The notes under the pieces are model-generated. The model saw only the letters and a list, made by a program, of their open reading frames with translations, did not search any database and had not been told where the DNA came from. Of a stretch of 39,200 nt of DNA, positions 28,361 to 39,200 are shown one piece after another. Position 1 is the stretch's first letter. Each line of letters opens with the position of its first letter. The DNA is taken from assembly GCA_023659785.1 (NCBI GenBank), contig JAGXOR010000001.1, forward strand, positions 1 to 39,200. Reading direction: 5' to 3'. This stretch comes from Methanomicrobia archaeon LH_S13 (GTDB lineage: Archaea > Halobacteriota > Syntropharchaeia > Alkanophagales > Methanospirareceae). A program made the position numbers and the translations under genes.

Positions 28361-28456
28361 ACCAATAATAACATATTTTTTTATTATATAATAGTTTCGG
28401 TTTTTAAGTGTACGTATATAATGAATAATTATTAAAGATACGAGGTGAGATAGATT

Positions 28457-28630
28457 ATGGAAATAGAAGAAAAAAGCGCGGGTAATGTGGAGATATTATC
28501 CCTGAACGATAGGCTCGATGCCATCGTGGATTCCAAGAAGATGAACTTGACCTACGTAAATGCGGGGCACAACCCTCCTCTGCTGCTCTGGGAAACGTCC
28601 GGTGAAATTATCTTATTAAATTACATATAA
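28457..28630 (+). pseudogene. chimeric relic: STAS (anti-sigma antagonist)-like N-terminus joined to a PP2C/SpoIIE phosphatase motif
   Basis: A 57-aa ORF translated by hand. The N-terminus, MEIEEKSAGNVEILSLNDRLDA, is STAS-like. The segment LTYVNAGHNPPLLL matches the SpoIIE/PP2C motif. It is far too short for either domain. Confidence 0.4.
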
Positions 28631-28673
28631 TTATTTATACTTTAACTCACTATAACATAGTGAAGAAAGAAAA

Positions 28674-29687
28674 ATGAAGAACCTCGAAGCCATTCTCGCG
28701 GGTGATAAAGGTTTGGGTTTGGGCTTGGGCTTAGGGCACGTATTACACTTGTATAATTCAAACGTAAACAAATATGCCGTTCAAATACCTTTCATTGCTT
28801 CCACATCCAAAAAAGAAAAGGTTATTTACGTGACTGCGGAGGAGGAGCTGATAAAAGAGGAGTTAGAAATAGAGAATTTAAATTTAAAGGTTGATATGGT
28901 TATATATTACCCGGAGGAGATGGGGAAGATATGCATGCATAATAAGGGGAGAATTATCGTAGACGTTTCTTCATTTGGTGATGCTTCGGTTATAGAAGAA
29001 GTGGAAGGAAAAAGGAGGGTTATAGGAAGAAAAACACTTTACAGTAGATATACCAATTACAAGCAAAGAGAAGTATATTTAAGCTCTATTTGCAATCAGT
29101 ACCCCAGTGCATATAGCATATTATGCAGTTATAACATGGATGAGCTGGAGCCAGAAATGAGTAACTCGCTGTTGAAATACCACGATAAGATAATTATGAG
29201 CACTGATGACAGCGATGTAGGCATGCCTTCATCTATACTGTTACAAACTACGAATAGTATTGCGGAGAAATATATGGTGCGATTTGTGAAGAATTATTTA
29301 GACATGATTGTGCTTGCATTGGTCTTAAAGAGAAAAATGTGCGGCACCGATATAATAAAAAGTATTCAAAAGAGTTTCGGGGTACTCCTGAGCACTGGAA
29401 CAGTATATCCACTTTTGCATGATTTGGAGGAAAAGGGACTATTAGACTGCGAATACGGTATAAGAAGGAGGTACAAAAAGAAGGTATATAAGCCAAAAGA
29501 TGAACAGCAGGTAAAGAATATCCTGATAGAGCACGTTCAATCGAATAACATTTTAAACAAATTCTTGCGGTCTTTTCCTCATGATTATATAATAGGGGGG
29601 AGGGAGCTGGACAAGGAGGAAACAAGAGATCACAGTAAAAAACCACGAGATTTCAAAAGAGACACACAAGAGATGCATCCCTACTAA
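28674..29687 (+). CDS. putative regulator: MEDS-like N-terminal sensory domain fused to PadR-type winged HTH
   Basis: 337 aa. HVLHLYNSNVNKYAVQIPFIASTSKKEKVIYV resembles the MEDS N-terminus. LDMIVLALVLKRKMCGTDIIKSIQKSFGVLLSTGTVYPLLHDLEEKGLL is PadR-like. The last ~15 codons run into 22-nt box copy 1. Confidence 0.5.
   Translation: MKNLEAILAGDKGLGLGLGLGHVLHLYNSNVNKYAVQIPFIASTSKKEKVIYVTAEEELIKEELEIENLNLKVDMVIYYPEEMGKICMHNKGRIIVDVSSFGDASVIEEVEGKRRVIGRKTLYSRYTNYKQREVYLSSICNQYPSAYSILCSYNMDELEPEMSNSLLKYHDKIIMSTDDSDVGMPSSILLQTTNSIAEKYMVRFVKNYLDMIVLALVLKRKMCGTDIIKSIQKSFGVLLSTGTVYPLLHDLEEKGLLDCEYGIRRRYKKKVYKPKDEQQVKNILIEHVQSNNILNKFLRSFPHDYIIGGRELDKEETRDHSKKPRDFKRDTQEMHPY
29639..29660 (+). promoter_or_regulatory. 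22-nt conserved box, copy 1 (AAAACCACGAGATTTCAAAAGA)
   Basis: 21/22 identical to copy 3 (36550-36571) and 20/22 to copy 2 (31137-31158). It lies in the 3' end of the regulator ORF. Confidence 0.5.
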
Positions 29688-29722
29688 TATTCTTAATTAT
29701 AAAGAGCTAAACAAATCCGCTT

Positions 29723-29744
29723 TTTTATATCAGGATTTGATATA
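29723..29744 (+). promoter_or_regulatory. putative TATA box (TTTTATATCA) overlapping the palindrome TATATCA-N5-TGATATA, upstream of the first gvpF/L-like gene
   Basis: AT-rich TATA-like element about 75 nt upstream of ATG 29805. The same TTTTATATCAAATCC core recurs at 33632 in the opposite half-site orientation. Confidence 0.3.
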
Positions 29745-29804
29745 ACCAAAATTTATTAAAGAACAGAGGTAGAATTACGTTTTTAGAGAGGGTAAGGGAA
29801 AATA

Positions 29805-30842
29805 ATGGAAGAGATTAATATCGCGTTCATCGGGAAAAAGGGAATGCCATTTCCGATAAGAAAGCATCCCGGAAGATACTTCTTCATCTCGGAAACCGAT
29901 TTAAAAAAGCTGACGGAGATAAACGAAGCGTGCAAGGAAAAGGGACTAAAGCACCTCAAAGAAATAAGGATAGTTGGTAGAGGAGGAGTATTGGGGAACA
30001 AGCCCTTTTTGCTAAGACGACCAGAAGGGGGTTTTCTCGAAGGTAGGTATGTTTGTATTCTTGTAGAGCATACGGTAGAGTTCGAAGAGGTGCGAAAAAG
30101 GTATGAAGGGTTAATAAAAGAAGAGAAAATAGCAAAGGAAAAGGAAAAGGCAGAAGAAAAGAAAGAGGAGGTAATAAGAAAAAGAGAGGAAGGGAAATAC
30201 GTTTACTGCGTGATAAAATCAGATGAAGAGCAGAGAAGTTTTGGTGATTTTGGGATAGAAGATACAGGAGAAGTTTATACCATTCCCTATAAGAAGTTCG
30301 CAGCGGTTGTGAGTGATTCCCCGATGAAGGAATATGAAGCGAGGGAAGAAAATGTGAAAGAGCACGAAGAAATTGTTAGGAAGATATTATTAGAGGGTCA
30401 CACGGTGCTGCCTGTTGCTTTTAATATGGTTTTTAAGGATAAACGGACGCTGCTTGTAACGATGAGCAAGGCGAGGAAGGGATTAAGAAAAGCTTATGAA
30501 ACAGTGGACAAAAAAGTAGAACTCGGAATTAAGGCTATTTTCACTAAAGAGGCGCTGAAAACCCTTGAAAAAAGCAGAAGCGAGTTAGGCCAGGACTTTG
30601 AATCTGACTTACTCGAAACAATAGATGGTAAATTCGCATCTTTAAAGAAGTTGGATTTGTTCAGTGACCGTCTGGCATTGAATATGACTTTTTTGGTTGA
30701 CCGGGACAAGATAGCGGAGATTTCAGAAGCAATTGAACCCCTGTATAATAAATACGATTCGTTAAAAGTCCAGTATAGCGGTCCCTGGGCACCCTATAAT
30801 TTTGTTAACATAAGGATATTAGGAAAAGGAGGAGGAAAATAA
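29805..30842 (+). CDS. GvpL/GvpF-family gas vesicle protein with ~130-aa uncharacterised N-terminal extension
   Basis: 345 aa. From KYVYCVIKSD onward it has the GvpL_GvpF pattern (YTIPYKKFAAVVSD, ...HEEIVRKILLEGHTVLPVAFNMVF, ...LNMTFLVDRDK, ...YSGPWAPYNF). Confidence 0.75.
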   Translation: MEEINIAFIGKKGMPFPIRKHPGRYFFISETDLKKLTEINEACKEKGLKHLKEIRIVGRGGVLGNKPFLLRRPEGGFLEGRYVCILVEHTVEFEEVRKRYEGLIKEEKIAKEKEKAEEKKEEVIRKREEGKYVYCVIKSDEEQRSFGDFGIEDTGEVYTIPYKKFAAVVSDSPMKEYEAREENVKEHEEIVRKILLEGHTVLPVAFNMVFKDKRTLLVTMSKARKGLRKAYETVDKKVELGIKAIFTKEALKTLEKSRSELGQDFESDLLETIDGKFASLKKLDLFSDRLALNMTFLVDRDKIAEISEAIEPLYNKYDSLKVQYSGPWAPYNFVNIRILGKGGGK

Positions 30843-31127
30843 ATGCCATTTATAATTGACGACTTATTTCTGCGGATGCTTGGGATTTCTATCCCCCCTT
30901 TCGATATGTTATGGTTGATGGAGCAAATAAGGGATTATGCTTATACAGAGATGTATGATACAGAGAAGATAAATAGCCAGCTAAAAGAGAACAGGCTGCT
31001 TTACGAATTTGATGAGATAACAAAAGAGGAGTATGAGAAAAGGAACGAGAAACTTAATCACAAATTGAAAATGGCAAACCACGTGAACCACGCAAATATG
31101 CGGGACAGAGTGAATGCCCTGAGATAA
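30843..31127 (+). CDS. gvpG: GvpG-like gas vesicle protein
   Basis: 94 aa. MPFIIDDLFLR...MYDTEKINSQLKENRLLYEFDEITKEEYEKRNEKL matches the GvpG pattern as remembered. It starts directly after the stop of the previous gene. Confidence 0.6.
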   Translation: MPFIIDDLFLRMLGISIPPFDMLWLMEQIRDYAYTEMYDTEKINSQLKENRLLYEFDEITKEEYEKRNEKLNHKLKMANHVNHANMRDRVNALR

Positions 31128-31136
31128 GAGAAAGAT

Positions 31137-31158
31137 AAAACCACGAGATTACACAAGA
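31137..31158 (+). promoter_or_regulatory. 22-nt conserved box, copy 2 (AAAACCACGAGATTACACAAGA)
   Basis: Intergenic, 20 nt upstream of ATG 31178. 21/22 identical to copy 3. Confidence 0.5.
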
Positions 31159-31177
31159 TTTACACAGAAGAGAGAAA

Positions 31178-31390
31178 ATGAAAAAAGGAAGAAGGAGAGG
31201 AAAAGAAAAACGCCTTGTGCCAAGATCTTTAAAAACAATAGATGCATTACAGGAAAAGGGGACAGTGGTTGATTTCAAGTACTCAACCAATTTAATTTCC
31301 TTGATAAGAATGGACGTTGAGGGAAGAGCTGCGATTAAAGGTTATGATGCCGGTGTTGACGTTCATCCATTCAAACTATACAGGAGGTAA
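31178..31390 (+). CDS. highly divergent GvpA/J/M-family-like small protein with basic N-terminus
   Basis: 70 aa. SLKTIDALQEKGTVVDFKYSTNLISLIRMDVEGRAAIKGYD aligns by eye to the GvpA core LAEVLDRILDKGVVVD.WARVSLVGIE.LTVEARVVVASV. Confidence 0.45.
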   Translation: MKKGRRRGKEKRLVPRSLKTIDALQEKGTVVDFKYSTNLISLIRMDVEGRAAIKGYDAGVDVHPFKLYRR

Positions 31391-31394
31391 GAAC

Positions 31395-33383
31395 ATGAAC
31401 AAAGAGCCAGGCTTTTTCTCTGATGAATTAAACCTCATATTCTTCGGTGGGAAAGGAGGAGAGGGGAAGACGACATGTGCGGCTGCAACTGCGCTGCGTC
31501 TATCAGAAAGAGGGAGGAAAACGCTTATCCTCTCCACTGACCCAGCTCATTCACTTTCAGATAGTTTCGGCATTCACATAGGTAACAAAATCACGCCTCT
31601 AAAAGACAACCTGTATGGTCTGGAGATAGATTCGAGGGAATTGATAGAAGAGTTTATGAAAGAAAATGAAATTACAATTTCAAAGATAGTTGACAGAGGC
31701 ACATATCTTGATGCCGATGACATATTAAAAATGCTCTCCCTTTCCCTACCAGGTATGGACGAGTACATGGCGATATTAAAAATAAGGGAATTGATGAGAG
31801 AGGGGGAATACGATTTGTTCATTTCCGATACAGCACCAACTGGACACTCCATTCGTCTATTATTAACACCGGGATTAGCTGATGAATGGATTGGTTTCCT
31901 CGATAAGTTGGCAGAAAAACACAGGTATATAACGAGGACATTCAGGGGCAGATATGTAAAGGACGAAACGGACGCGTTCTTAGAAAAGATGCATAGAGAC
32001 TTGAGGATGGTGATGAAAGCTTTTACAGATGTGAAAACGGAATTTGTGCCCGTTACAATCCTGGAAGCGATGGGTGTAGAGGAAACCGCAGACCTGCTTT
32101 CTGCACTTCAAGACCTCAAAATAAATGTCAGAAGCATAGTAATTAATAGAGCAAATTTATCCCCCATAGAGAAGTGCGATTTATGCGCTCATAGAGTAAA
32201 AGACCAGGAAAGGTATGTCAGTGAAATATATGAAAAATGGGGGAGATATGACGTTATACAGGTGCCGCTGTTTCCTCACGAGATAAGAGGGTCAGAAAGG
32301 CTAAGCGAGTTCGGCGATGTATTGGCAGGAAAGCCTTATGAGTATAAGCCAAGTGCAGAGAAGAGACAGCGAAAAAAAAAAGCGAAATCGAGAATAAAGG
32401 ATTTGCTGGAGAAAGAACTGAAGGTGCTGATTATTGGCGGAAAGGGGGGAGTGGGAAAAACAACGGTAGCATCAGCATCGGGTTTGTACATTGCAAGAAG
32501 AAAGCCGGGAAAGAAGATACTGGTGGGCTCTACTGACCCGGCGCATTCATTATCCGACTCTTTTGACCTGCACATAGGTAATAAGGTTACCAAGATAGAA
32601 AACAACCTTTATGGTTTGGAAATAGATGCGGAAGAGGCGATGGCTGAATTTAGAGATAAATACACGACGGAGATAAAAGAAGCATTTGAAGGTTTAGCCC
32701 GCGATAGAAGAACTGCCATTGATTTGCCTTTTGATAGGGATATACTTCAACGTCTCAAGGAGCTTACTCCTCCTGGTTTAGATGAGATAATGGCACTCGC
32801 GAAGATAGTGGAATTGACGAAGAGTAGTGAGTACGATTTAATTATTTTAGATACCGCTCCAACAGGGCATACCATTAGATTGTTAGAGCTGCCGGATATA
32901 GCATTGGACTGGTTTGATGCTTTTATCAGGATAATACACAAATATAGAGAGATGGTTTCGCTGACAGACACCTTAAGATTGGTATTAGAAAAGAAGAGGG
33001 ATACAGAAGAGACGCTAAAAATCCTGAGAAGCGAAGCCCAAACGGAATTTGTTGGTGTTACAATTCCAGAGGCGATGAGTGTATTTGAGACTGAACACCT
33101 CATATCAGAGATAAAAAAAGCTGAGATTTGTTTAGAGCACGTTATTATCAACAGTATTATTCCGGCTCCTGCGGCGAAATGTAGTTTCTGTATATCGCAA
33201 CTAAAAAATCAGAGGGAGTATATAAAAGAAATAGGAAAACTTGGCTACAAAATCACCGAGATACCTTTGTTCGAGCATGAAATCCGAGGTATAGATATGC
33301 TTGCTGACTTTGGCGAAGTGATATATGGAGAAGGGAGGAGTCATAAAACGGGGATTGGCAATAAATTATTTGGTTTTTTTTAA
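31395..33383 (+). CDS. tandem (pseudo-dimeric) ArsA/Get3(TRC40)-family ATPase
   Basis: Start at ATG 31395, preceded by AGGAGGT; the track ORF starts at 31317. Two P-loops (GGKGGEGKTT, GGKGGVGKTT). Two DTAPTGH(S/T)IRLL switch motifs. Two CxxC motifs (KCDLC at 32175-32186, KCSFC at 33180-33191). Confidence 0.85.
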   Translation: MNKEPGFFSDELNLIFFGGKGGEGKTTCAAATALRLSERGRKTLILSTDPAHSLSDSFGIHIGNKITPLKDNLYGLEIDSRELIEEFMKENEITISKIVDRGTYLDADDILKMLSLSLPGMDEYMAILKIRELMREGEYDLFISDTAPTGHSIRLLLTPGLADEWIGFLDKLAEKHRYITRTFRGRYVKDETDAFLEKMHRDLRMVMKAFTDVKTEFVPVTILEAMGVEETADLLSALQDLKINVRSIVINRANLSPIEKCDLCAHRVKDQERYVSEIYEKWGRYDVIQVPLFPHEIRGSERLSEFGDVLAGKPYEYKPSAEKRQRKKKAKSRIKDLLEKELKVLIIGGKGGVGKTTVASASGLYIARRKPGKKILVGSTDPAHSLSDSFDLHIGNKVTKIENNLYGLEIDAEEAMAEFRDKYTTEIKEAFEGLARDRRTAIDLPFDRDILQRLKELTPPGLDEIMALAKIVELTKSSEYDLIILDTAPTGHTIRLLELPDIALDWFDAFIRIIHKYREMVSLTDTLRLVLEKKRDTEETLKILRSEAQTEFVGVTIPEAMSVFETEHLISEIKKAEICLEHVIINSIIPAPAAKCSFCISQLKNQREYIKEIGKLGYKITEIPLFEHEIRGIDMLADFGEVIYGEGRSHKTGIGNKLFGFF

Positions 33384-33405
33384 AAATTTCAAAAGGGGAT
33401 AAGAA

Positions 33406-33624
33406 ATGGGAAGAAAGAAGTATTGGCAAAGAAGCATGGAAATTTACTTCAGGGAGCAGAATAGAAAGCGTGATCCTTTAAAGCTTCGTGAGGAAATGGA
33501 AAAGGGAACTAAAGAAATCAGTGAAAAAATGAGTTCTTATGTGGAAGAGAAAAGTGAAGAGCGAGATGACTATGCAAAAAGATTCCAGGAAGATGTGAAA
33601 AAGATAAAGAATAGACTGAGATAA
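33406..33624 (+). CDS. small charged coiled-coil-like protein (72 aa)
   Basis: ATG preceded by a purine-rich RBS. N-terminal KKYWQR resembles KEHWQR of ORF 34694. No family recognised. Confidence 0.5.
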   Translation: MGRKKYWQRSMEIYFREQNRKRDPLKLREEMEKGTKEISEKMSSYVEEKSEERDDYAKRFQEDVKKIKNRLR

Positions 33625-33631
33625 AAAAGGG

Positions 33632-33641
33632 TTTTATATCA
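33632..33641 (+). promoter_or_regulatory. putative TATA box (TTTTATATCA) of an internal promoter
   Basis: Lies in the only long (112 nt) intergenic gap of this sub-cluster and carries the same 10-mer as 29723-29732. Confidence 0.25.
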
Positions 33642-33736
33642 AATCCCGCTATAATCGAAATCCTTTTGAATGCAGACTTCTAACATAAAATTTGAAATTA
33701 AAAAAATAAAAGAGTTTTTAACGAGGTGTGAAAAAA

Positions 33737-33961
33737 ATGGTTACACGAGAAGCAAAAAGTAGGGGAAAGTTGGTAGCGGAATTGGATGATTCAACGTATA
33801 GGGCGATAGCAGGTAAGGTACGTAGTCACTTATCTCCTCGTGTGTATATCTCACCTGAGAGGACAAGTGTAGAAGGTAAGAAAGTAGTCAGGCTGTGGAG
33901 CAGATACCCGGAAGCTGCGAAAAGAGCGGTTCAAAAGGTATTGGCTGAGAGGCGTAAATAA
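33737..33961 (+). CDS. small basic hypothetical protein (74 aa)
   Basis: ATG 33737 sits 8 nt after GAGGTG; the track uses GTG 33728. No family recognised. Confidence 0.5.
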   Translation: MVTREAKSRGKLVAELDDSTYRAIAGKVRSHLSPRVYISPERTSVEGKKVVRLWSRYPEAAKRAVQKVLAERRK

Positions 33962-33978
33962 AAAAGGAGGTAATAAAA

Positions 33979-34188
33979 ATGACTTCGGTAAGGAGTTATA
34001 GTATGGAGAAGGATAGAGCGATAAAAGAGATACAAGCAGGAATTGAAGAGGTTGAAGAAAGAATGGCGGCTGGTATAAGTGAGCTACAAGCAGAAAGAGA
34101 AGCGGTTGAAAGAAGAGTTGCTGCGGATACTACGGAGAAGCAGAAAGATTCAGATAGGTTTGCAGAAGAGTTTTGGGAAGGAGAATGA
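33979..34188 (+). CDS. small acidic coiled-coil-like protein (69 aa)
   Basis: AAGGAGGT RBS upstream. E/A/R-rich heptad-like sequence. Confidence 0.5.
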   Translation: MTSVRSYSMEKDRAIKEIQAGIEEVEERMAAGISELQAEREAVERRVAADTTEKQKDSDRFAEEFWEGE

Positions 34189-34217
34189 AAGGTTATAAAA
34201 AATAGGGGGTGATAAGA

Positions 34218-34430
34218 ATGGTTACTATGCGACCGAATAGTGGAACAACACCAGGGAAGGATAAAGCAGCAAGAGACAGGCAAGTGAAGTTTTTAAGATA
34301 TCTCAGGACGAGAACACAACACTTATCTCTCACATTACGTCCACGCGGCGTTCGACAACTCTGGATGGTGGAGGAACAGAGATGGCGTGGCAGGGAGTGG
34401 TGGAAGAAAGATAAAGATTGGTGGAGGTAA
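34218..34430 (+). CDS. small basic protein with Trp/Arg-rich C-terminus (70 aa, ...EEQRWRGREWWKKDKDWWR)
   Basis: ATG 34218 follows GGGGGTG; GTG 34209 is an alternative. Confidence 0.45.
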   Translation: MVTMRPNSGTTPGKDKAARDRQVKFLRYLRTRTQHLSLTLRPRGVRQLWMVEEQRWRGREWWKKDKDWWR

Positions 34431-34435
34431 ATGAC

Positions 34436-34687
34436 ATGACGACTTCAAGTAGTATTTCAAGACGCTTAGAAGGGCTGGGCAACGAAAAAGAGAGGGTAAA
34501 AAGAGAGACAGAAAGGATTGATAGACAGAAGAAGGCGATACTCGAAAGAAGGCAGAAAGCATTGGAACGGGGTGAAACATTGACCGGGATGGATGATATG
34601 GAGAGAAAAAAGAGAGCAACGCGGTCGAGATGGGATAGAAAATGGAATTATAGAAGATGGAAAATTGATGCGAAAAAGAGGTCTTAA
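34436..34687 (+). CDS. small basic protein, paralog A (83 aa)
   Basis: ATG is 6 nt after the previous stop, preceded by GGTGGAGGT. It shares ERI.RQK....ERR.....RGE..TG.D..ERKK.AT..RWD.KW..R..K.DA with ORF 34694. Confidence 0.55.
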   Translation: MTTSSSISRRLEGLGNEKERVKRETERIDRQKKAILERRQKALERGETLTGMDDMERKKRATRSRWDRKWNYRRWKIDAKKRS

Positions 34688-34693
34688 AGCAAA

Positions 34694-34960
34694 ATGACAG
34701 GGAAAGAGCATTGGCAAAGAGATCTGGCGTATTTGAAAAGAAGCATGCTGGGTTCAGGGCAGTTGAGAAGGATTAAAGCACAGGAAGAACGGATAAGCAG
34801 GCAGAAGGAAGCTGCGCATGAAAGAAGACGAGCAGCTATAAAAAGGGGTGAAGTAATAACCGGGATAGACAAGGTGGAAAGGAAAAAGTTAGCAACGCAG
34901 CATAGATGGGATGGAAAATGGGCTCGCAGGAAAATGAAATTGGACGCAAGAAGGAGGTAG
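34694..34960 (+). CDS. small basic protein, paralog B (88 aa)
   Basis: Tandem paralog of 34436..34687 (see motif above). Confidence 0.55.
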   Translation: MTGKEHWQRDLAYLKRSMLGSGQLRRIKAQEERISRQKEAAHERRRAAIKRGEVITGIDKVERKKLATQHRWDGKWARRKMKLDARRR

Positions 34961-34966
34961 GTAAAA

Positions 34967-35329
34967 ATGGAAAAAATCGGTGCGGAAATCGAAGATGCGA
35001 GAATACAAAGTGTATATGATATATGGGGAAAGAAGCCGCCGGGAATTAGATTCTGCGATACTGATGTTTTAACCATAGCTGCAAAGACAGATGAGAGTGA
35101 GGAAGTAAAAGACACTTTCTTTTTCTCTCTAAAAGCAGATGGAACATTTGCTGTAAATACCGCGCACAGAATAAGCCGTTTAAGAAGAAAAAGACTGGCT
35201 GAATTCCTTAGATACTACAATATCGCAGATAAAGTGGAGGAATACAACTTAAGAAAGGGAATAGAGGAATGGAAAGGGAAGAAGATAGAAGTGGTTAAAA
35301 GCAACGGAAGGTATATTTTTGTTCAATAA
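34967..35329 (+). CDS. hypothetical protein (120 aa)
   Basis: AAGGAGGTAGGT RBS. No family recognised. Confidence 0.5.
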   Translation: MEKIGAEIEDARIQSVYDIWGKKPPGIRFCDTDVLTIAAKTDESEEVKDTFFFSLKADGTFAVNTAHRISRLRRKRLAEFLRYYNIADKVEEYNLRKGIEEWKGKKIEVVKSNGRYIFVQ

Positions 35330-35343
35330 AAAGGAGGTAAAAA

Positions 35344-35466
35344 ATGACACCGGAAAAATCGAAAGTAAGATTGGCGGGAATGGAAAGAAAGATGGAAGAA
35401 AGGATAAAAAAGAGCGATTTAAGATGGAAAAGAAGAGAGAGGGCTGGAAAAGCAGCTAAAGCGTAA
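35344..35466 (+). CDS. very small basic ORF (40 aa, MTPEKSKVRLAGMERKMEERIKKSDLRWKRRERAGKAAKA)
   Basis: Translated by hand. AAAGGAGGT RBS 6 nt upstream. Its RWKRR motif echoes the neighbouring small proteins. Confidence 0.4.
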   Translation: MTPEKSKVRLAGMERKMEERIKKSDLRWKRRERAGKAAKA

Positions 35467-35488
35467 GCTTAAAAGAGGAAGAAAATAT

Positions 35489-35519
35489 CCTGTTCTTTTC
35501 TCTCTATTTTTCTTTTTTT
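35489..35519 (+). terminator. oligo-T/pyrimidine-rich tract, candidate archaeal terminator, followed by the TATA-like GATAAATAT
   Basis: CCTGTTCTTTTCTCTCTATTTTTCTTTTTTT directly follows the last small ORF. The TATA-like element lies about 20 nt before ATG 35543, so a near-leaderless transcript is possible. Confidence 0.35.
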
Positions 35520-35542
35520 GATAAATATGATTGTATTCAAAA

Positions 35543-36574
35543 ATGGTAGAAAATAAAGGTAAATACGTCTATGGAATATTAAACAACGGTGAGGGAAGGA
35601 GTTTTGGAGAAATCGGGATTAACAAAGAAGAGGCTTACTGCATCAATTTTAAGGATATTTCCGCCGTGGTTGGCGATTCTGCACTTAAGACATACGAAGT
35701 GACGAGGGAAAAATTGCTTGCTCATGAACAGGTCATCCAAGAGGTGATGAAAGAGCATACTATCATCCCAATGACGTTTGGAACCGTTGCTAAGGACGAG
35801 AAAGATGTCGAGAATATGCTTGAGCGGATGTACGCGGAATTCAAGCAGGTGCTGAAGAGAATAGAGAATAAATTGCAGATAGATGTGAAAGCGATTTGGA
35901 ATAAAGATGTAATTTACACGGGTATTTTGAGAGAAGATGAAGGGATAAGGAGGTTAAGTGAAAAGGCATCAAAAAAACCGGCTGATAAGACTTATGATGA
36001 AAAGGTGGAATTAGGTAAGAAAGTGATGTCAGCCGTGGATAAGAGGAAAGAGAGGTATATAAAAGAGATAACTGAGGCTTTGAGCACTTATATAGAAGAT
36101 TCACAGCAGAATAAACTCAAAGATGACAAAATGATAATGAACACTTCTTTTCTCGTGGCTAAAAGCAAAGAGCAAGAGATTTATAAAAAATTGGACGAGT
36201 TGGATGAGAAATATGGAGAGGACGTGCAGGTTATAGCAGTTGGACCTTTGCCTCCTTATAATTTCTCGCATATAGAAATAAAGCCTATGGATTTCGATAC
36301 GATTGATTCTGCCCGTAGAACATTAGGCTTGGGTAAGGGGGTGACGATGTCAGAAATTGATGATGCATATAACCGCCTGGCATTGCAATTCCATCCTGAC
36401 CGAAATCCTGATGCGTCAGCAAAAGAGAAGTTCAAGGAGATAGAGCAAGCTTATTCTACGCTGCGAGATTATTGCTCACGATATGTGTATTCATTCAAGA
36501 AGAAGGATGTGGAGAAGACTGTGATGGTGTATATAGCTAGCGGAGGTAAAAAACCACGAGATTTCACAAGATAG
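35543..36574 (+). CDS. GvpL/GvpF-family protein fused to a C-terminal J-domain (DnaJ-type, HPD motif)
   Basis: 343 aa. GKYVYGILN...FKDISAVVGDS...HEQVIQEVMKEHTIIPMTFGTV...MNTSFLVAKSK...GPLPPYNF is GvpL_GvpF-like. Positions 36302-36469 encode the J-domain MSEIDDAYNRLALQFHPDRNPDA.AKEKFKEIEQAYSTL (HPD at 36392-36400). The last codons run into 22-nt box copy 3. Confidence 0.8.
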   Translation: MVENKGKYVYGILNNGEGRSFGEIGINKEEAYCINFKDISAVVGDSALKTYEVTREKLLAHEQVIQEVMKEHTIIPMTFGTVAKDEKDVENMLERMYAEFKQVLKRIENKLQIDVKAIWNKDVIYTGILREDEGIRRLSEKASKKPADKTYDEKVELGKKVMSAVDKRKERYIKEITEALSTYIEDSQQNKLKDDKMIMNTSFLVAKSKEQEIYKKLDELDEKYGEDVQVIAVGPLPPYNFSHIEIKPMDFDTIDSARRTLGLGKGVTMSEIDDAYNRLALQFHPDRNPDASAKEKFKEIEQAYSTLRDYCSRYVYSFKKKDVEKTVMVYIASGGKKPRDFTR

Positions 36575-36587
36575 CAATTTCTTGTGA
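36550..36587 (+). promoter_or_regulatory. 22-nt conserved box, copy 3 (AAAACCACGAGATTTCACAAGA), whose 3' half forms an 8-bp hairpin (TCACAAGA/TCTTGTGA)
   Basis: Box at 36550-36571. Hairpin arms at 36564-36571 and 36580-36587. It lies at the gvpF/L-J to hsp70 junction. Confidence 0.5.
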
Positions 36588-36621
36588 GAATCTGTGTAAT
36601 CTGAGGGGTTATAAAGGAAGC

Positions 36622-38412
36622 ATGACAAAAATATCAGCAAGTGGAATCGTAGGAATAGATTTAGGAACAACGAATTCAGCAGCGGCGGTGATGATAGGTG
36701 GTGAGCCGGTAATAATACCAAGTGAGGAGGGACTTACACCTTACGGTAAGATGTTTCCTTCTGTGGTGGCATTCACGGACGAAAATGAAAGATTGGTTGG
36801 TGAGTTAGCAAGGATGCACGCGGTTGAAAATCCTGATAGGACAGTGAGCGGGATAAAGAGGAAAATGGGCACTTCGCACAAGGTAAAAATAGGTCCGAGG
36901 GAATATACACCGCAGGAAATCTCTGCTATGATACTTCAAAAGATAAAGATGGATGCCGAGGAATATTTGGGAACGGAAGTAGAAAAGGCGGTTATCACCG
37001 TGCCCGCGTATTTTAACGATAATCAAAGGATAGCGACGAAAGAAGCGGGAAGAATTGCAGGTTTAGAAGTAGTCAGGCTGATAAACGAACCTACTGCCGC
37101 TTCTTTAGCTTATGGATTGGATAAAGAGAAGAAAGAGGAATTAAAGATTGCAGTGCTTGATTTGGGTGCAGGGACGTTTGACGTTACGATATTAAAGCTC
37201 AGAGAAGAGCTGTTCAAGGTCATCTCCACCAGTGGAGATACTCAATTAGGCGGGCTGGACATGGACGAGAAGCTCGTTGAATTCATGCTTAAGGAGTTGG
37301 AAAAGGAATACCGGCTTGACATAAGAAGAGATAAAAAGGCAATGCAAAAATTACGGTCTGCGACAGAGAGAGCGAAGATAGATTTATCTACTGCAAGTTC
37401 AACGAATATAGGCATATCATTTCCATTTGTTGAGTTGGGGTTAAATCAGAATATGAACCTGGATTTAAGCAGGGAAGAAATGGAAGAGTTAATCAAGCCC
37501 GTAATTCAGAGGTTGGATGAACCGATAAATCAAGCGTTAGAAGATGCGAAATTAGCTCCTGAGCACATAGATAAGGTTGTATTGGTAGGAGGACCAACGA
37601 GGATGCCTGTAGTGCGGGAAAAAATCGAGCGATTCTTTGGTAAGGAAGCGGAGAGAGGGATAGACCCGATGGAATGTGTGGCAAAAGGGGCTGCAATTCA
37701 AGCTGGTGTTCTCGCAGGTGAGATAGATGATGTGCTTCTGCTGGATGTAATTCCTCTTTCCTTAGGTATAGAGACCTCAGGCGGGATTTTTACGCCGATA
37801 ATGGAGAGGAATACGACAATACCGGTAGATGAGAGCGAGATATTTACCACCTCAAAGGATAACCAGATGAGGATGGCAATACACGTGCTACAAGGAGAAA
37901 GAGCAATGGCTGCGGATAACACAACACTCGGCTTGTTTTCCTTTGATGATATTCCAGTAGCACCAAAAAGGACTCCTCTAATTGATGTCGCTTTTGATAT
38001 AGATGCCGATGGCATTTTAAACGTGAGTGCCGAGGATTTAGACACGAGTAAGCGCAGGGAGATAAGGATCGAAGGGTCAACAAAACTTTCAGAAGAAGAA
38101 ATAGGAGGGATGATAAAAAAAGCGAAGAGACATGAAAAGGAGGATAAGAAAAGGAGAGAGAGTATAGAGACGCTAAATCAAGCAAAGGCGATAATAGATG
38201 CAGCAGAGCTTGCAATAAAAGAAATGTACGAAGATGAAGGAGTGAATGAACAAGGAAAGGGAGAGGTGAAAAAGGGTGTTTTACAATTAAAAGAAGGAAT
38301 GAAAGGTGAAGTTGAAGGCGATATTGACATTCAGAAGATTAAAAAAGATGCTGAGGAGTTGAAAAGAATAATGCAGAAGATGTTGATTGATAAAGGAGAA
38401 GGAGAAGAATAA
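36622..38412 (+). CDS. Hsp70/DnaK-family chaperone (596 aa), no adjacent grpE or canonical dnaJ
   Basis: GIDLGTTNSAAAV, VITVPAYFNDNQR, LINEPTAASLAYG and DLGAGTFDV, plus a substrate-binding beta domain and a short helical lid. Confidence 0.9.
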   Translation: MTKISASGIVGIDLGTTNSAAAVMIGGEPVIIPSEEGLTPYGKMFPSVVAFTDENERLVGELARMHAVENPDRTVSGIKRKMGTSHKVKIGPREYTPQEISAMILQKIKMDAEEYLGTEVEKAVITVPAYFNDNQRIATKEAGRIAGLEVVRLINEPTAASLAYGLDKEKKEELKIAVLDLGAGTFDVTILKLREELFKVISTSGDTQLGGLDMDEKLVEFMLKELEKEYRLDIRRDKKAMQKLRSATERAKIDLSTASSTNIGISFPFVELGLNQNMNLDLSREEMEELIKPVIQRLDEPINQALEDAKLAPEHIDKVVLVGGPTRMPVVREKIERFFGKEAERGIDPMECVAKGAAIQAGVLAGEIDDVLLLDVIPLSLGIETSGGIFTPIMERNTTIPVDESEIFTTSKDNQMRMAIHVLQGERAMAADNTTLGLFSFDDIPVAPKRTPLIDVAFDIDADGILNVSAEDLDTSKRREIRIEGSTKLSEEEIGGMIKKAKRHEKEDKKRRESIETLNQAKAIIDAAELAIKEMYEDEGVNEQGKGEVKKGVLQLKEGMKGEVEGDIDIQKIKKDAEELKRIMQKMLIDKGEGEE

Positions 38413-38435
38413 AATCATAGGGGTGAGATAAGAAT

Positions 38436-38952
38436 ATGGAAAAAGGGAAGAGGAAAAAAAAGAAGGGGTTGAATTTGATTTCGGGGGTTTATTTAAAGGT
38501 TTGGGAGACTTTTTTGAAAGTGTTGCAGAAATTGCAAAAGAGTGAAAGACGGAGATAGAGAAGACTGGAGAGATTACTTTTGATAAAGCGAAGAAACTAC
38601 GAGGGATGTATGGCATTAATGTTAAGGTCAGCAGTGCAGGCATACCTGTTGTAGAAACTTTCGGGACAAGAAAAAGAAAATACGAAAAGCGCGAGCCCCC
38701 AGAACTCGAAGCGAACCTTTAGTAGATGCTTTTGAGGAGGATGAAAAAGAAAGTATGAGAGTAATAGCAGAATTGCCGGGAACTGAGGAAAAGGATATAA
38801 AAATTGAGATAGAAGGGAATATTTTAAAATTATCTGCGGATAGTAAAGAAAGAAAGTATAGTAAAGATGTAACACTGCCCTGTGAAGTAACTGGCGATAT
38901 GCAAAAGACGTATAATAATGGGGTATTAGAGCTTATATTGAAGAAAAAATAG
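38436..38952 (+). pseudogene. sHSP (Hsp20/alpha-crystallin) GvpH-like gene, disrupted by two -1 frame changes and one in-frame TGA
   Basis: The ATG at 38436 is in frame 0. The Gly-rich N-terminal region EGVEFDFGGLFKGLGDFFESVAEIAKE is in the -1 frame after the A-run at 38454-38461. There is a TGA at 38543-38545. The alpha-crystallin part, EPLVDAFEED..MRVIAELPGTEEKDIKIEIEGNILKLSA...NNGVLELILKKK, sits in a third frame, of which track ORF 38755..38952 is the tail. Confidence 0.6.
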
Positions 38953-39024
38953 ATAGTTTTAAAATATGTTATATGACCTATTTTTAAACGGATAGAAATA
39001 TGTTAAAAATATGGAGGAGGGAAT

Positions 39025-39200
39025 ATGGAAAAAGAATATGAAAAGAGGAGAAAACGTCTAAAAGAGAGGTATCAAGCACGAAAAGAGAGATATGAGGAGC
39101 GTTACAAATCTGAAGCGCCGATGCCACCATCAGTAGAGGAAAAAGTAGAAGAAGAAATAAAGCCCAAAGTGGAAGCACCAGTACCGGTAGAGGAGGAAGA
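39025..39200 (+). CDS. partial ORF running off the window (MEKEYEKRRKRLKERYQARKERYEERYKSEAPMPP...), charged/low-complexity
   Basis: GGAGGAGGG RBS upstream. The frame is open to the last base, on the same strand as the cluster. Confidence 0.35.
   Translation, partial: MEKEYEKRRKRLKERYQARKERYEERYKSEAPMPPSVEEKVEEEIKPKVEAPVPVEEE

Follow-up and report, generated by a model that had tools for sequence, protein, structure and literature searches.

A gas-vesicle gene cluster with a GvpF-J-domain fusion, a linked Hsp70 and a tandem Get3-type ATPase in an ANME-1-like archaeon

The gvp cluster and its GvpF-J/Hsp70 pair

We analysed a stretch of 39,200 nucleotides (nt; hereafter, the window) of contig JAGXOR010000001.1 from Methanomicrobia archaeon LH_S13, in which positions 28674 to 39200 are occupied by a gas-vesicle (gvp) gene cluster of 18 co-directional genes on the forward strand. 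From left to right these include a MEDS-PadR regulator, a GvpF/L paralogue, GvpG, a 70-amino-acid (aa) open reading frame (ORF) referred to here as w70, a tandem Get3-type ATPase, eight small charged ORFs (s1 to s8), a fusion of GvpF/L with a J-domain (GvpF-J), a DnaK-type Hsp70, a small heat-shock protein (sHSP) pseudogene and a helix-hairpin-helix (HhH) gene that leaves the window. Families were assigned by Pfam and NCBIfam profile searches of the window ORFs, which upheld the labels that the original prediction, made from the sequence alone, had given to the regulator, the first GvpF/L with its extension, GvpG, the tandem ATPase, GvpF-J and Hsp70. It had also described about 20 tightly spaced genes with GGAGG-type sites; the genes are indeed co-directional and close (intergenic gaps, in order, of 117, 0, 50, 4, 22, 103, 17, 20, -13, 6, 6, 14, 76, 47, 23 and 72 nt), we counted 18 of them, and about 7 of the starts have GGAGG-type sites upstream. 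Our term ANME-1-like derives from the labels of the closest proteins in the database (Methanophagales, Halobacteriota or Methanomicrobia archaeon). Related contigs and loci were numbered L001 to L046, and the flanks of two of them, L002 and L033, were read up to 10 kb on each side.

The GvpF-J gene (35543..36574), whose start is recorded as the ATG at 35543 and not as a TTG, encodes a full-length GvpL_GvpF domain (E 5.5e-66) followed by a DnaJ domain (PF00226; E 5e-16, 59 bits against a cut-off of 27.8) that carries the residues H284-P285-D286. This HPD motif is invariant in 17 diverse GvpF-J homologues, and the GvpL_GvpF plus DnaJ architecture is found in about 50 protein clusters at 90% identity. 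The next gene (36622..38412) encodes a gvp-linked Hsp70 paralogue of DnaK type, 596 aa long (HSP70, PF00012, E 9e-196, covering residues 9-587), whose alignment to Geobacillus DnaK 2v7y spans residues 7-521 and takes in the nucleotide-binding domain (NBD), the VLLLDV(I/T)PLSLG linker and the substrate-binding domain (SBD).

We found the fusion in 30 independent loci, which come from metagenome-assembled genomes (MAGs) labelled Bathyarchaeia (many), Methanocellales, Thermoplasmatales, Methanobacterium, Micrarchaeota and ANME-1-like, together with two bacterial-type contigs, and the Hsp70 gene lies directly 3' of GvpF-J in 28 of the 30. When searched from the Hsp70 side, identity falls from 78-97% (ANME-1-like homologues of 555-596 aa) to 64% or less. 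All of the 78-97% homologues with matchable contigs carry GvpF-J. Two homologues of 566-569 aa (61-64%) lie in runs of the order GvpK-GvpF/L-GvpA-like-ArsA-GvpF-J-Hsp70, where the stop of GvpF-J overlaps the start of Hsp70, and a 618-aa homologue (59%) lies in a canonical grpE-dnaK-dnaJ operon (L037). In a rough neighbour-joining (NJ) tree the canonical archaeal DnaKs, including those of Bathyarchaeia, form one clade and the gvp-linked Hsp70s fall outside it. Neither GrpE nor DnaJ_C was seen in any gvp locus, while both stand beside the canonical homologue in L037.

These results bear on the possibility that the chaperone genes are housekeeping neighbours that came to lie here by chance. The Hsp70 sequence would fit such an origin, being that of a typical DnaK closest to the Geobacillus protein. 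However, its adjacency to GvpF-J recurs across several archaeal orders, GvpF and the J-domain are parts of one protein, the gvp-linked Hsp70s lack the neighbouring grpE and dnaJ that the canonical homologue has, and the two kinds occupy separate branches of the tree. Moreover, GvpF-J, Hsp70 and the tandem ArsA-type ATPase occur together repeatedly in other genomes, a linkage that the original prediction had proposed to look for, which dismisses a chance adjacency in this one. We regard the chance origin as extremely improbable, and for dnaK it is refuted by synteny.

The chaperone machinery had originally been proposed as a possible substitute for the AAA+ protein GvpN, and this was not supported. 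GvpN, GvpO and canonical GvpA co-occur with GvpF-J and Hsp70 in most loci (examples for GvpN and GvpO are L007, L008 and the Bathyarchaeia loci), and the sister contig L039 carries gvpA-gvpA-gvpN-gvpO; therefore, the pair accompanies GvpN and is not its replacement. In the full-text open-access literature, no paper came up that connects gas vesicles with either a J-domain fusion or a dedicated Hsp70, and the GvpF-J/Hsp70 pair is apparently both undescribed and widely conserved.

Other genes and features of the cluster

The tandem, pseudo-dimeric P-loop ATPase (31395..33383) starts at an ATG at 31395 with GGAGG upstream and contains two ArsA_ATPase domains (E 7.5e-149). Among solved structures it comes closest to Chlamydomonas ARSA1 (5zme) and Methanothermobacter Get3 (3zq6); GKGG(E/V)GKT, DTAPTGH and CxxC are present in both halves, and the CxxC of the C-terminal half aligns with that of 3zq6. 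Escherichia coli ArsA (1f48) aligns over about 160 aa only. By these motifs and alignments the protein is clearly a Get3 type rather than an arsenite pump. We also considered a role in arsenic resistance and rejected it, as neither the window nor related loci contain ars genes and the sequence is Get3-like. An ArsA-type gene stands next to GvpG in every examined locus that has both, with w70 between them in three, and it is optional, being present in about one third of the GvpF-J loci. Pfam holds a family named 'HSP20-like domain found in ArsA', which links both chaperone types.

Two side observations concern this ATPase. The first P-loop (at about 31450) reads GKGGEGKT, with Glu for Val, where the L009 and L010 orthologues and the second half of the protein have GKGGVGKT; the N-half site may be degenerate, or the change may be a sequencing variant. 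In addition, the window (31128-33620) and L002 (5541-8180) have only about 45% aa identity in their ArsA regions despite about 88% nt identity across the cluster: the window has w70 and one fused tandem gene, 92% identical to L039 and L046, and L002 has two single-domain ArsA genes and extra GvpG paralogues without w70. Judged from this comparison, the difference is a module swap.

The cluster is headed by the MEDS-PadR transcription regulator (28674..29687), in which PadR scores 36.1 bits against a cut-off of 27 and MEDS is weak (19.5 bits). Both domains are matched by all seven of the seven orthologues searched (best E 7e-9 for MEDS and 6e-10 for PadR), and a MEDS-PadR gene precedes GvpF/L-GvpG in nearly all archaeal loci. 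In L010 (707-1690) and L015 (531-1388) the reading frame of the orthologue is interrupted by a stop codon, a sign of pseudogenes or of errors in assembly. L010 bears a Nitrosotalea label, but its cluster is ANME-1-like at 78-81% identity; therefore, this contig is probably mis-binned.

The first GvpF/L paralogue (29805..30842; GvpL_GvpF E 4e-39, with NCBIfam GvpL/GvpF matches under their cut-offs) and GvpF-J are the two PF06386 proteins of the window. Since its GvpL_GvpF match covers residues ~130-345, the 128-aa N-terminal extension is real, and it is common only to the ANME-1-like and Methanobacterium orthologues. In some Bathyarchaeia (L013 5875-6951, L015 1360-2424 and L019 2000-3061) a basic coiled-coil extension, KYxELRKKRLKEReERFKR, stands in place of this domain, and a similar motif (EYEKRRKRLKERYQARKERY) occurs at the start of the HhH protein at the window end (39025-39130); the two may represent a common interaction tag. 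GvpG (30843..31127; PF05120, E 2.7e-15) starts where the GvpF/L stop codon ends.

The 70-aa ORF w70 (31178..31390) encodes a basic protein that had been labelled GvpA-like. Its orthologues share 72-91% aa identity and lie between GvpG and the fused tandem ArsA gene in L009, L010, L039-L042 and L046, with ratios of nonsynonymous to synonymous substitution rates (dN/dS) of 0.13-0.24; it is missing from L002. On this evidence w70 is a real conserved gene of unassigned family. The GvpA label fared less well. We found neither a Pfam nor an NCBIfam match, and an alignment to the GvpA profile by hhalign was weak (P = 0.0066, probability 5.7%), although in register over the helix-1/beta-hairpin core (TIDALQEKGTVVDF in w70 vs VIDRILDKGIVVDA in GvpA). 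A HMMER scan of 1.84 billion representatives returned two orthologue clusters and two spurious repeat proteins and no GvpA, and the AlphaFold2 (AF2) model from a 3-sequence alignment was unusable (predicted local distance difference test, pLDDT, 44). A likeness of w70 to GvpA is hence unproven.

The eight small charged ORFs (33406-35466), taken as genes in the original prediction, have orthologues in other gvp loci and dN/dS values of 0.1-0.4 (0.55 for s3), indicative of purifying selection, and therefore they are genes, with no credible Pfam or NCBIfam family for any of them. The first, s1 (33406..33624, 72 aa, charged, dN/dS 0.19), has orthologues in L010 (74%), Bathyarchaeia L016 (41%) and L004, and s2 (33728..33961, 77 aa, basic, dN/dS 0.16-0.36) in L002, L010 (80%) and L016 (57%). 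The acidic s3 (33979..34188, 69 aa) is less conserved (39-54%). Orthologues of the basic s4 (34209..34430, 73 aa) occur in L010 (69%) and in over 10 loci from Bathyarchaeia, where they lie between gvpA and gvpN. Two basic tandem paralogues follow that are 50% identical to each other, s5 (34418..34687, 89 aa; orthologues in L002, L009-L011, L013, L015 and L016; dN/dS 0.17-0.38) and s6 (34694..34960, 88 aa; orthologues as for s5, 74% to L002; dN/dS ~0.2). The 120-aa s7, also called w120 (34967..35329), is 93% identical to its L002 orthologue, 72-76% to those of L009 and L010 and 48-49% to those of Bathyarchaeia L013 and L016, in both of which it lies between gvpN and gvpO; it has no Pfam or NCBIfam match, its family is unassigned, and an AF2 model on the single sequence was unusable (pLDDT 42). 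The last, s8 (35344..35466, 40 aa, basic), has GGAGG upstream and is conserved in L009, L010, L004 and L011 in this frame, unlike an alternative frame at 35319-35459.

Two kinds of repeats occur among these genes. TATA-like AT-rich repeats (TTTTATATCA...ATATAA) pair 29723-29752 with 33632-33661 and 28416-28446 with 29740-29770. They stand about 80-95 nt 5' of the first GvpF/L and of s2, a placement that suggests internal archaeal promoters, so that the cluster may comprise several transcription units. A 17-27-nt element (GTAAAAAACCACGAGATTTCACAAGAT) is present in three copies, all within the gvp cluster, as opposed to 0.17 expected from shuffles: copy 1 (GTAAAAAACCACGAGATTTCA) at the 3' end of the regulator (29635..29660), copy 2 directly after GvpG (31133..31158) and copy 3 at the 3' end of GvpF-J (36546..36571), all on the forward strand. 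When translated through, it gives the regulator and GvpF-J of the window a common tail, KKPRDF(K/T)R. The copy after GvpF-J is also kept in L002 and L033 and has an 8-bp hairpin 3' of it; elsewhere the element is found at L002 11002-11038, L033 319-331 and L010 624-636 (reverse strand). The element could serve as an operator, terminator or processing site.

Behind the Hsp70 gene, the sHSP gene at 38436..38952 is broken, as originally noted: relative to the intact 171-aa gene of L002 it has lost 1 nt at one site and 4 nt at another and carries an in-frame TGA in place of GGA, three lesions in all, and a residual 65-aa ORF (38755-38952) still matches HSP20 (PF00011, E 6e-5). The same lesions are present in a separately assembled contig from run SRR14170924 that is 100% identical over 35309-39200. 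The ORF leaving the window (39025..39200) is likewise real, being the 5' part of a HhH gene whose full 121-aa product, with a HHH_5 match, is encoded in the identical contig L001.

Extent of the cluster and the gvpA-gvpN-gvpO operon

The original prediction saw a non-canonical, streamlined or re-purposed shell system, built of few Gvp parts, in which Get3, J-domain and Hsp70 replace GvpN, J, K, M and O. Taken by itself, the window agrees with it, as it yields no sign of GvpA, N, O, K, J or M; a tblastn search with three GvpA/J queries (E <= 1) found no sequence like PF00741, the GvpA/J family, in the 39.2 kb apart from the weak match of w70, whose register with the GvpA core could be read in the same sense. 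L002 and L033 also lack GvpN, GvpO and a short GvpA in the flanks read. The failure to recognise GvpN, K and O holds for the window, but GvpK and GvpA/J-family genes follow in collinear relatives, and further gvp genes past 39200 were among the findings that the original prediction had itself said would count against it. The contig identical to the window reaches only 214 nt past the window end. L002 shares about 88% nt identity with the window and runs collinear with it, starting 57 nt 5' of the regulator and reaching the window end; its operon then goes on with more HhH paralogues, a GvpA/J-family protein of 122 aa whose C-terminus forms a zinc ribbon, a 243-aa GvpA-family protein, three further proteins (two of them sHSP-like), GvpK and two GvpF/L. 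L033, a MAG from NCBI that is also collinear at about 88% identity, has the same order, after which the cluster ends and is followed by two-component genes and a CDC48-type AAA+ gene. The two PF00741 genes and GvpK thus lie 2-6 kb beyond the equivalent of the window end in both relatives, within a continuation of about 8 kb in which 3-4 HhH paralogues come just ahead of the GvpA/J-family genes. By collinearity, positions 28674 to 39200 are the left ~10.5 kb of a predicted cluster of roughly 18 kb, cut by the window end. With GvpN, GvpO and canonical GvpA accompanying GvpF-J and Hsp70 in most loci and in L039, and with w70 neither significantly GvpA-like nor present in L002, we consider a streamlined system very unlikely.

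The extended GvpA/J-family proteins are found in L002 (15035-16142), L004 (4228-4988 and 8184-9248) and L007 (14001-14375 and 18475-19581). They take two forms: the 122-aa form, with 63-81% conservation across phyla, has a zinc ribbon (CPxC...CPWCGW) at its C-terminus, and in a 199-375-aa form the GvpA core is fused to GRAM/bPH-like domains, in most cases together with a zinc ribbon.

On the left side, the homology of the window to all relatives starts 43-57 nt 5' of the regulator ATG. The left boundary falls in 28361-28673, with the junction at about 28617-28631, and beyond it are TFB and a PP2C-like gene fragment, the latter as a 57-aa ORF (28457-28630) with the PP2C/SpoIIE-like motif YVNAGHNPPLL. 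The upstream 28 kb hold archaeal housekeeping genes (HcyBio, FrhB, POR, PEPCK, Rad50-like, NadA and TFB), and the gvp cluster is therefore chromosomal; a plasmid or viral origin is ruled out by these flanks.

Sister contigs were found by a metagenome scan with the regulator, and three types of left junction exist among relatives at least 66% identical in this protein: divergent gvpA (L039, L042 and L009), HTH_45 with an 82-aa gene (L002, L038 and L043) and TFB with the 57-aa fragment (the window). L039, whose regulator, ArsA and w70 are 83%, 92% and 91% identical to those of the window, has directly 5' of the regulator, and divergent from it, a pair of identical canonical gvpA genes (73 aa each), a gene for a repeat protein of 82 aa, gvpN and gvpO. 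L042 has two gvpA copies 5' of the regulator and L009 a gvpA fragment. The 82-aa protein of L039 (2173-2421, reverse strand), between gvpA and gvpN, has an internal repeat IQRGIKQTT... and is a candidate short GvpC-like protein. It was also observed that the upstream flank of L002 is the downstream flank of L033 inverted, and the locus is therefore a rearrangement hot spot.

As the gvpA operon is absent at the left junction, it has been relocated or lost in this genome, and together with the sHSP pseudogene the rearranged junction makes decay of the cluster possible. The locus could then be a remnant whose gvpA-gvpN-gvpO genes are gone and whose host no longer makes gas vesicles, an explanation fitting the three disabling sHSP lesions, the PP2C-like fragment and TFB standing where L039 and L042 have gvpA, and the lack of GvpA, N and O in all 39.2 kb. 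On the other hand, the 16 cluster genes other than the sHSP gene are full length and intact relative to their orthologues, the small ORFs have dN/dS values of 0.1-0.4, and further sHSP-like paralogues exist downstream in the relatives. L002, L038 and L043 likewise have no gvpA operon upstream but keep their clusters intact, which suggests relocation rather than loss, and split gvp loci are known in Methanothrix (PMC10470525). A decaying remnant therefore seems to us unlikely, if still worth consideration.

Comparison with known systems and proposed role

The cluster resembles the haloarchaeal p-vac and c-vac regions in its GvpF/L paralogues and GvpG and, in collinear relatives, in its GvpJ/M-type GvpA-family proteins and GvpK. 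With their divergent gvpA-gvpA-gvpN-gvpO genes, the sister contigs have the two-operon layout of haloarchaeal gvpACNO/gvpDEFGHIJKLM. It differs from them in having a MEDS-PadR regulator instead of GvpD/GvpE, in having no recognisable GvpC, H or I, and in the zinc-ribbon and GRAM/bPH extensions of the GvpA/J-family members of its relatives; beyond the haloarchaeal set are the Get3-type ATPase, GvpF-J, Hsp70, sHSPs, HhH proteins and the eight small proteins.

The original prediction knew of no gvp cluster with a Get3/ArsA ATPase. However, Castillo and Saier (2010; PMC2963123) described two-domain ArsA homologues of ~640-660 aa, together with Hsp20, inside bacterial gvp operons of Bacteroidetes/Chlorobi (Polaribacter, Pelodictyon), Geobacter uraniireducens, cyanobacteria (Anabaena/Nostoc) and Acidobacteria, and proposed that the ArsA homologue energises a step of vesicle biogenesis. 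Our cluster shares with these operons an internally duplicated ArsA-family ATPase and a Hsp20 gene, but it is from an archaeal host and its ATPase is clearly Get3-like, with CxxC in both halves. 'Hsp70' and 'DnaK' do not occur in the text of that paper (0 occurrences each), nor is a J-domain fusion mentioned. Accordingly, the ArsA/Hsp20 part of the arrangement was already in the literature, and the GvpF-J/Hsp70 pair was not found there. The ATPase itself has the P-loop, the DTAPTGH switch and the archaeal Get3 CxxC in common with ARSA1 and Get3, and its tandem form matches ARSA1; it differs from Get3/TRC40 in having no tail-anchored-protein pathway context, in its place beside GvpG in gvp clusters, and in the N-half P-loop found here.

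The Hsp70 compares with canonical grpE-dnaK-dnaJ systems as a DnaK type with NBD, linker and SBD and a partner J-domain with HPD. Unlike them, the gvp loci have no GrpE and no type-I DnaJ, the J-domain is a C-terminal appendage of GvpF, and the Hsp70s of the ANME-1-like, L035 and L036 loci are shorter (566-596 vs ~610-640 aa). HscA and HscB, which serve the Fe-S scaffold IscU, are a client-dedicated Hsp70/J pair. The arrangement here is similar in that the operon of the putative client pathway also encodes a specialised Hsp70 and a J-protein whose other domain would be client-specific, and dissimilar in that the putative client-binding domain has the GvpF fold and the pathway is another one.

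As assembly factors, GvpF/L proteins make contact with subunits of the GvpA family, and the ATPase of Hsp70 is activated by J-domains that carry HPD; therefore, the fusion is most likely a client-specific J-protein. We propose that the GvpF domain would act as a client adaptor for GvpA-family subunits, and that the C-terminal J-domain, with its invariant HPD, would recruit the neighbouring Hsp70 and activate its ATPase. Hsp70 could then keep the hydrophobic, aggregation-prone shell and nucleation subunits soluble and pass them to the growing vesicle. The Get3-type ATPase would probably shield a hydrophobic helix, either the N-terminus of GvpG or a segment of a GvpA-family protein, and the sHSP would serve as a holdase, with the whole set working alongside GvpN and not in its place. 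The argument for this mechanism is one of domain architecture and synteny.

A different view is that Hsp70, the J-domain, the Get3-type ATPase and the sHSP act in regulation, quality control or disassembly and not in assembly of the shell. Hsp70/J systems often disaggregate proteins or pass them to proteases; the ArsA-type gene is optional, as noted above; and a gene for a CDC48-type AAA+ stands beside or within some clusters. This double AAA+ protein, which may be a further accessory unfoldase, is encoded in L033 (11952-14084), where its gene shares the strand of the ANME-1-like cluster and lies 1.2 kb past the end of it, and in L008 (2909-5041), inside a bacterial-type gvp operon beside GvpN. 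We nevertheless think such a role rather improbable, given that the J-domain is fused to a full-length GvpF, an assembly factor, that GvpF-J and Hsp70 are translationally coupled inside the structural operon, and that no protease gene is conserved among the loci.

We conclude that the window probably contains a truncated gvp cluster in which GvpF-J, Hsp70, the Get3-type ATPase and the sHSP would form a set of chaperones for hydrophobic subunits that accompanies GvpN. Several points weigh against this conclusion. GvpA, GvpN, GvpO and GvpK all went undetected in the 39.2-kb window, and GvpN, GvpO and a short GvpA were likewise missing from the flanks of up to 10 kb read for L002 and L033; the downstream half of the cluster is deduced from relatives and not from this genome; and the cluster shows a rearrangement at its left junction and has one sHSP pseudogene. 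As to the pair itself, the two bacterial-type loci lack the adjacency, Hsp70 standing at the far cluster end in L007 and being absent from L008; no GrpE-type exchange factor was seen in any gvp locus; and the NJ tree is rough, has no support values, and draws its canonical and gvp-linked Hsp70s from different genomes. For a more specific proposal we see about an even chance: GvpF-J and a GrpE-less Hsp70, often joined by a Get3-type ATPase and sHSPs, would form an undescribed ATP-driven relay that delivers GvpA-family subunits in nucleation and growth and is widespread in anaerobic archaea (ANME-1, Bathyarchaeia, Methanobacterium, Methanocellales and Thermoplasmatales).

Gas vesicles serve as acoustic reporters, and if the relay exists, it might be what foreign-host expression of archaeal gvp clusters misses. 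A 2025 study (PMC12848028) reported proteotoxic stress and poor assembly on heterologous expression and named chaperone capacity among possible host factors; therefore, co-expressing the dedicated chaperone set could help. As for the organisms themselves, a passage of a review (PMC4335971, citing Stokke 2012) mentions that ANME-1 Gvp proteins were detected by metaproteomics. Our results add archaeal cases to the 2010 record of ArsA and Hsp20 in bacterial gvp operons, and extend gvp clusters with canonical gvpA, gvpN and gvpO to ANME-1-like and Bathyarchaeia MAGs. More generally, they bear on how the very hydrophobic GvpA stays soluble and enters the growing vesicle, and on the roles of GvpF/L, G, J and K. 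A GvpF fused to a J-domain and provided with its own Hsp70 strongly hints that GvpF is a client adaptor and that assembly involves ATP-dependent chaperoning in many anaerobic archaea; if this is true, the role of GvpF as an adaptor for shell subunits would become directly testable.

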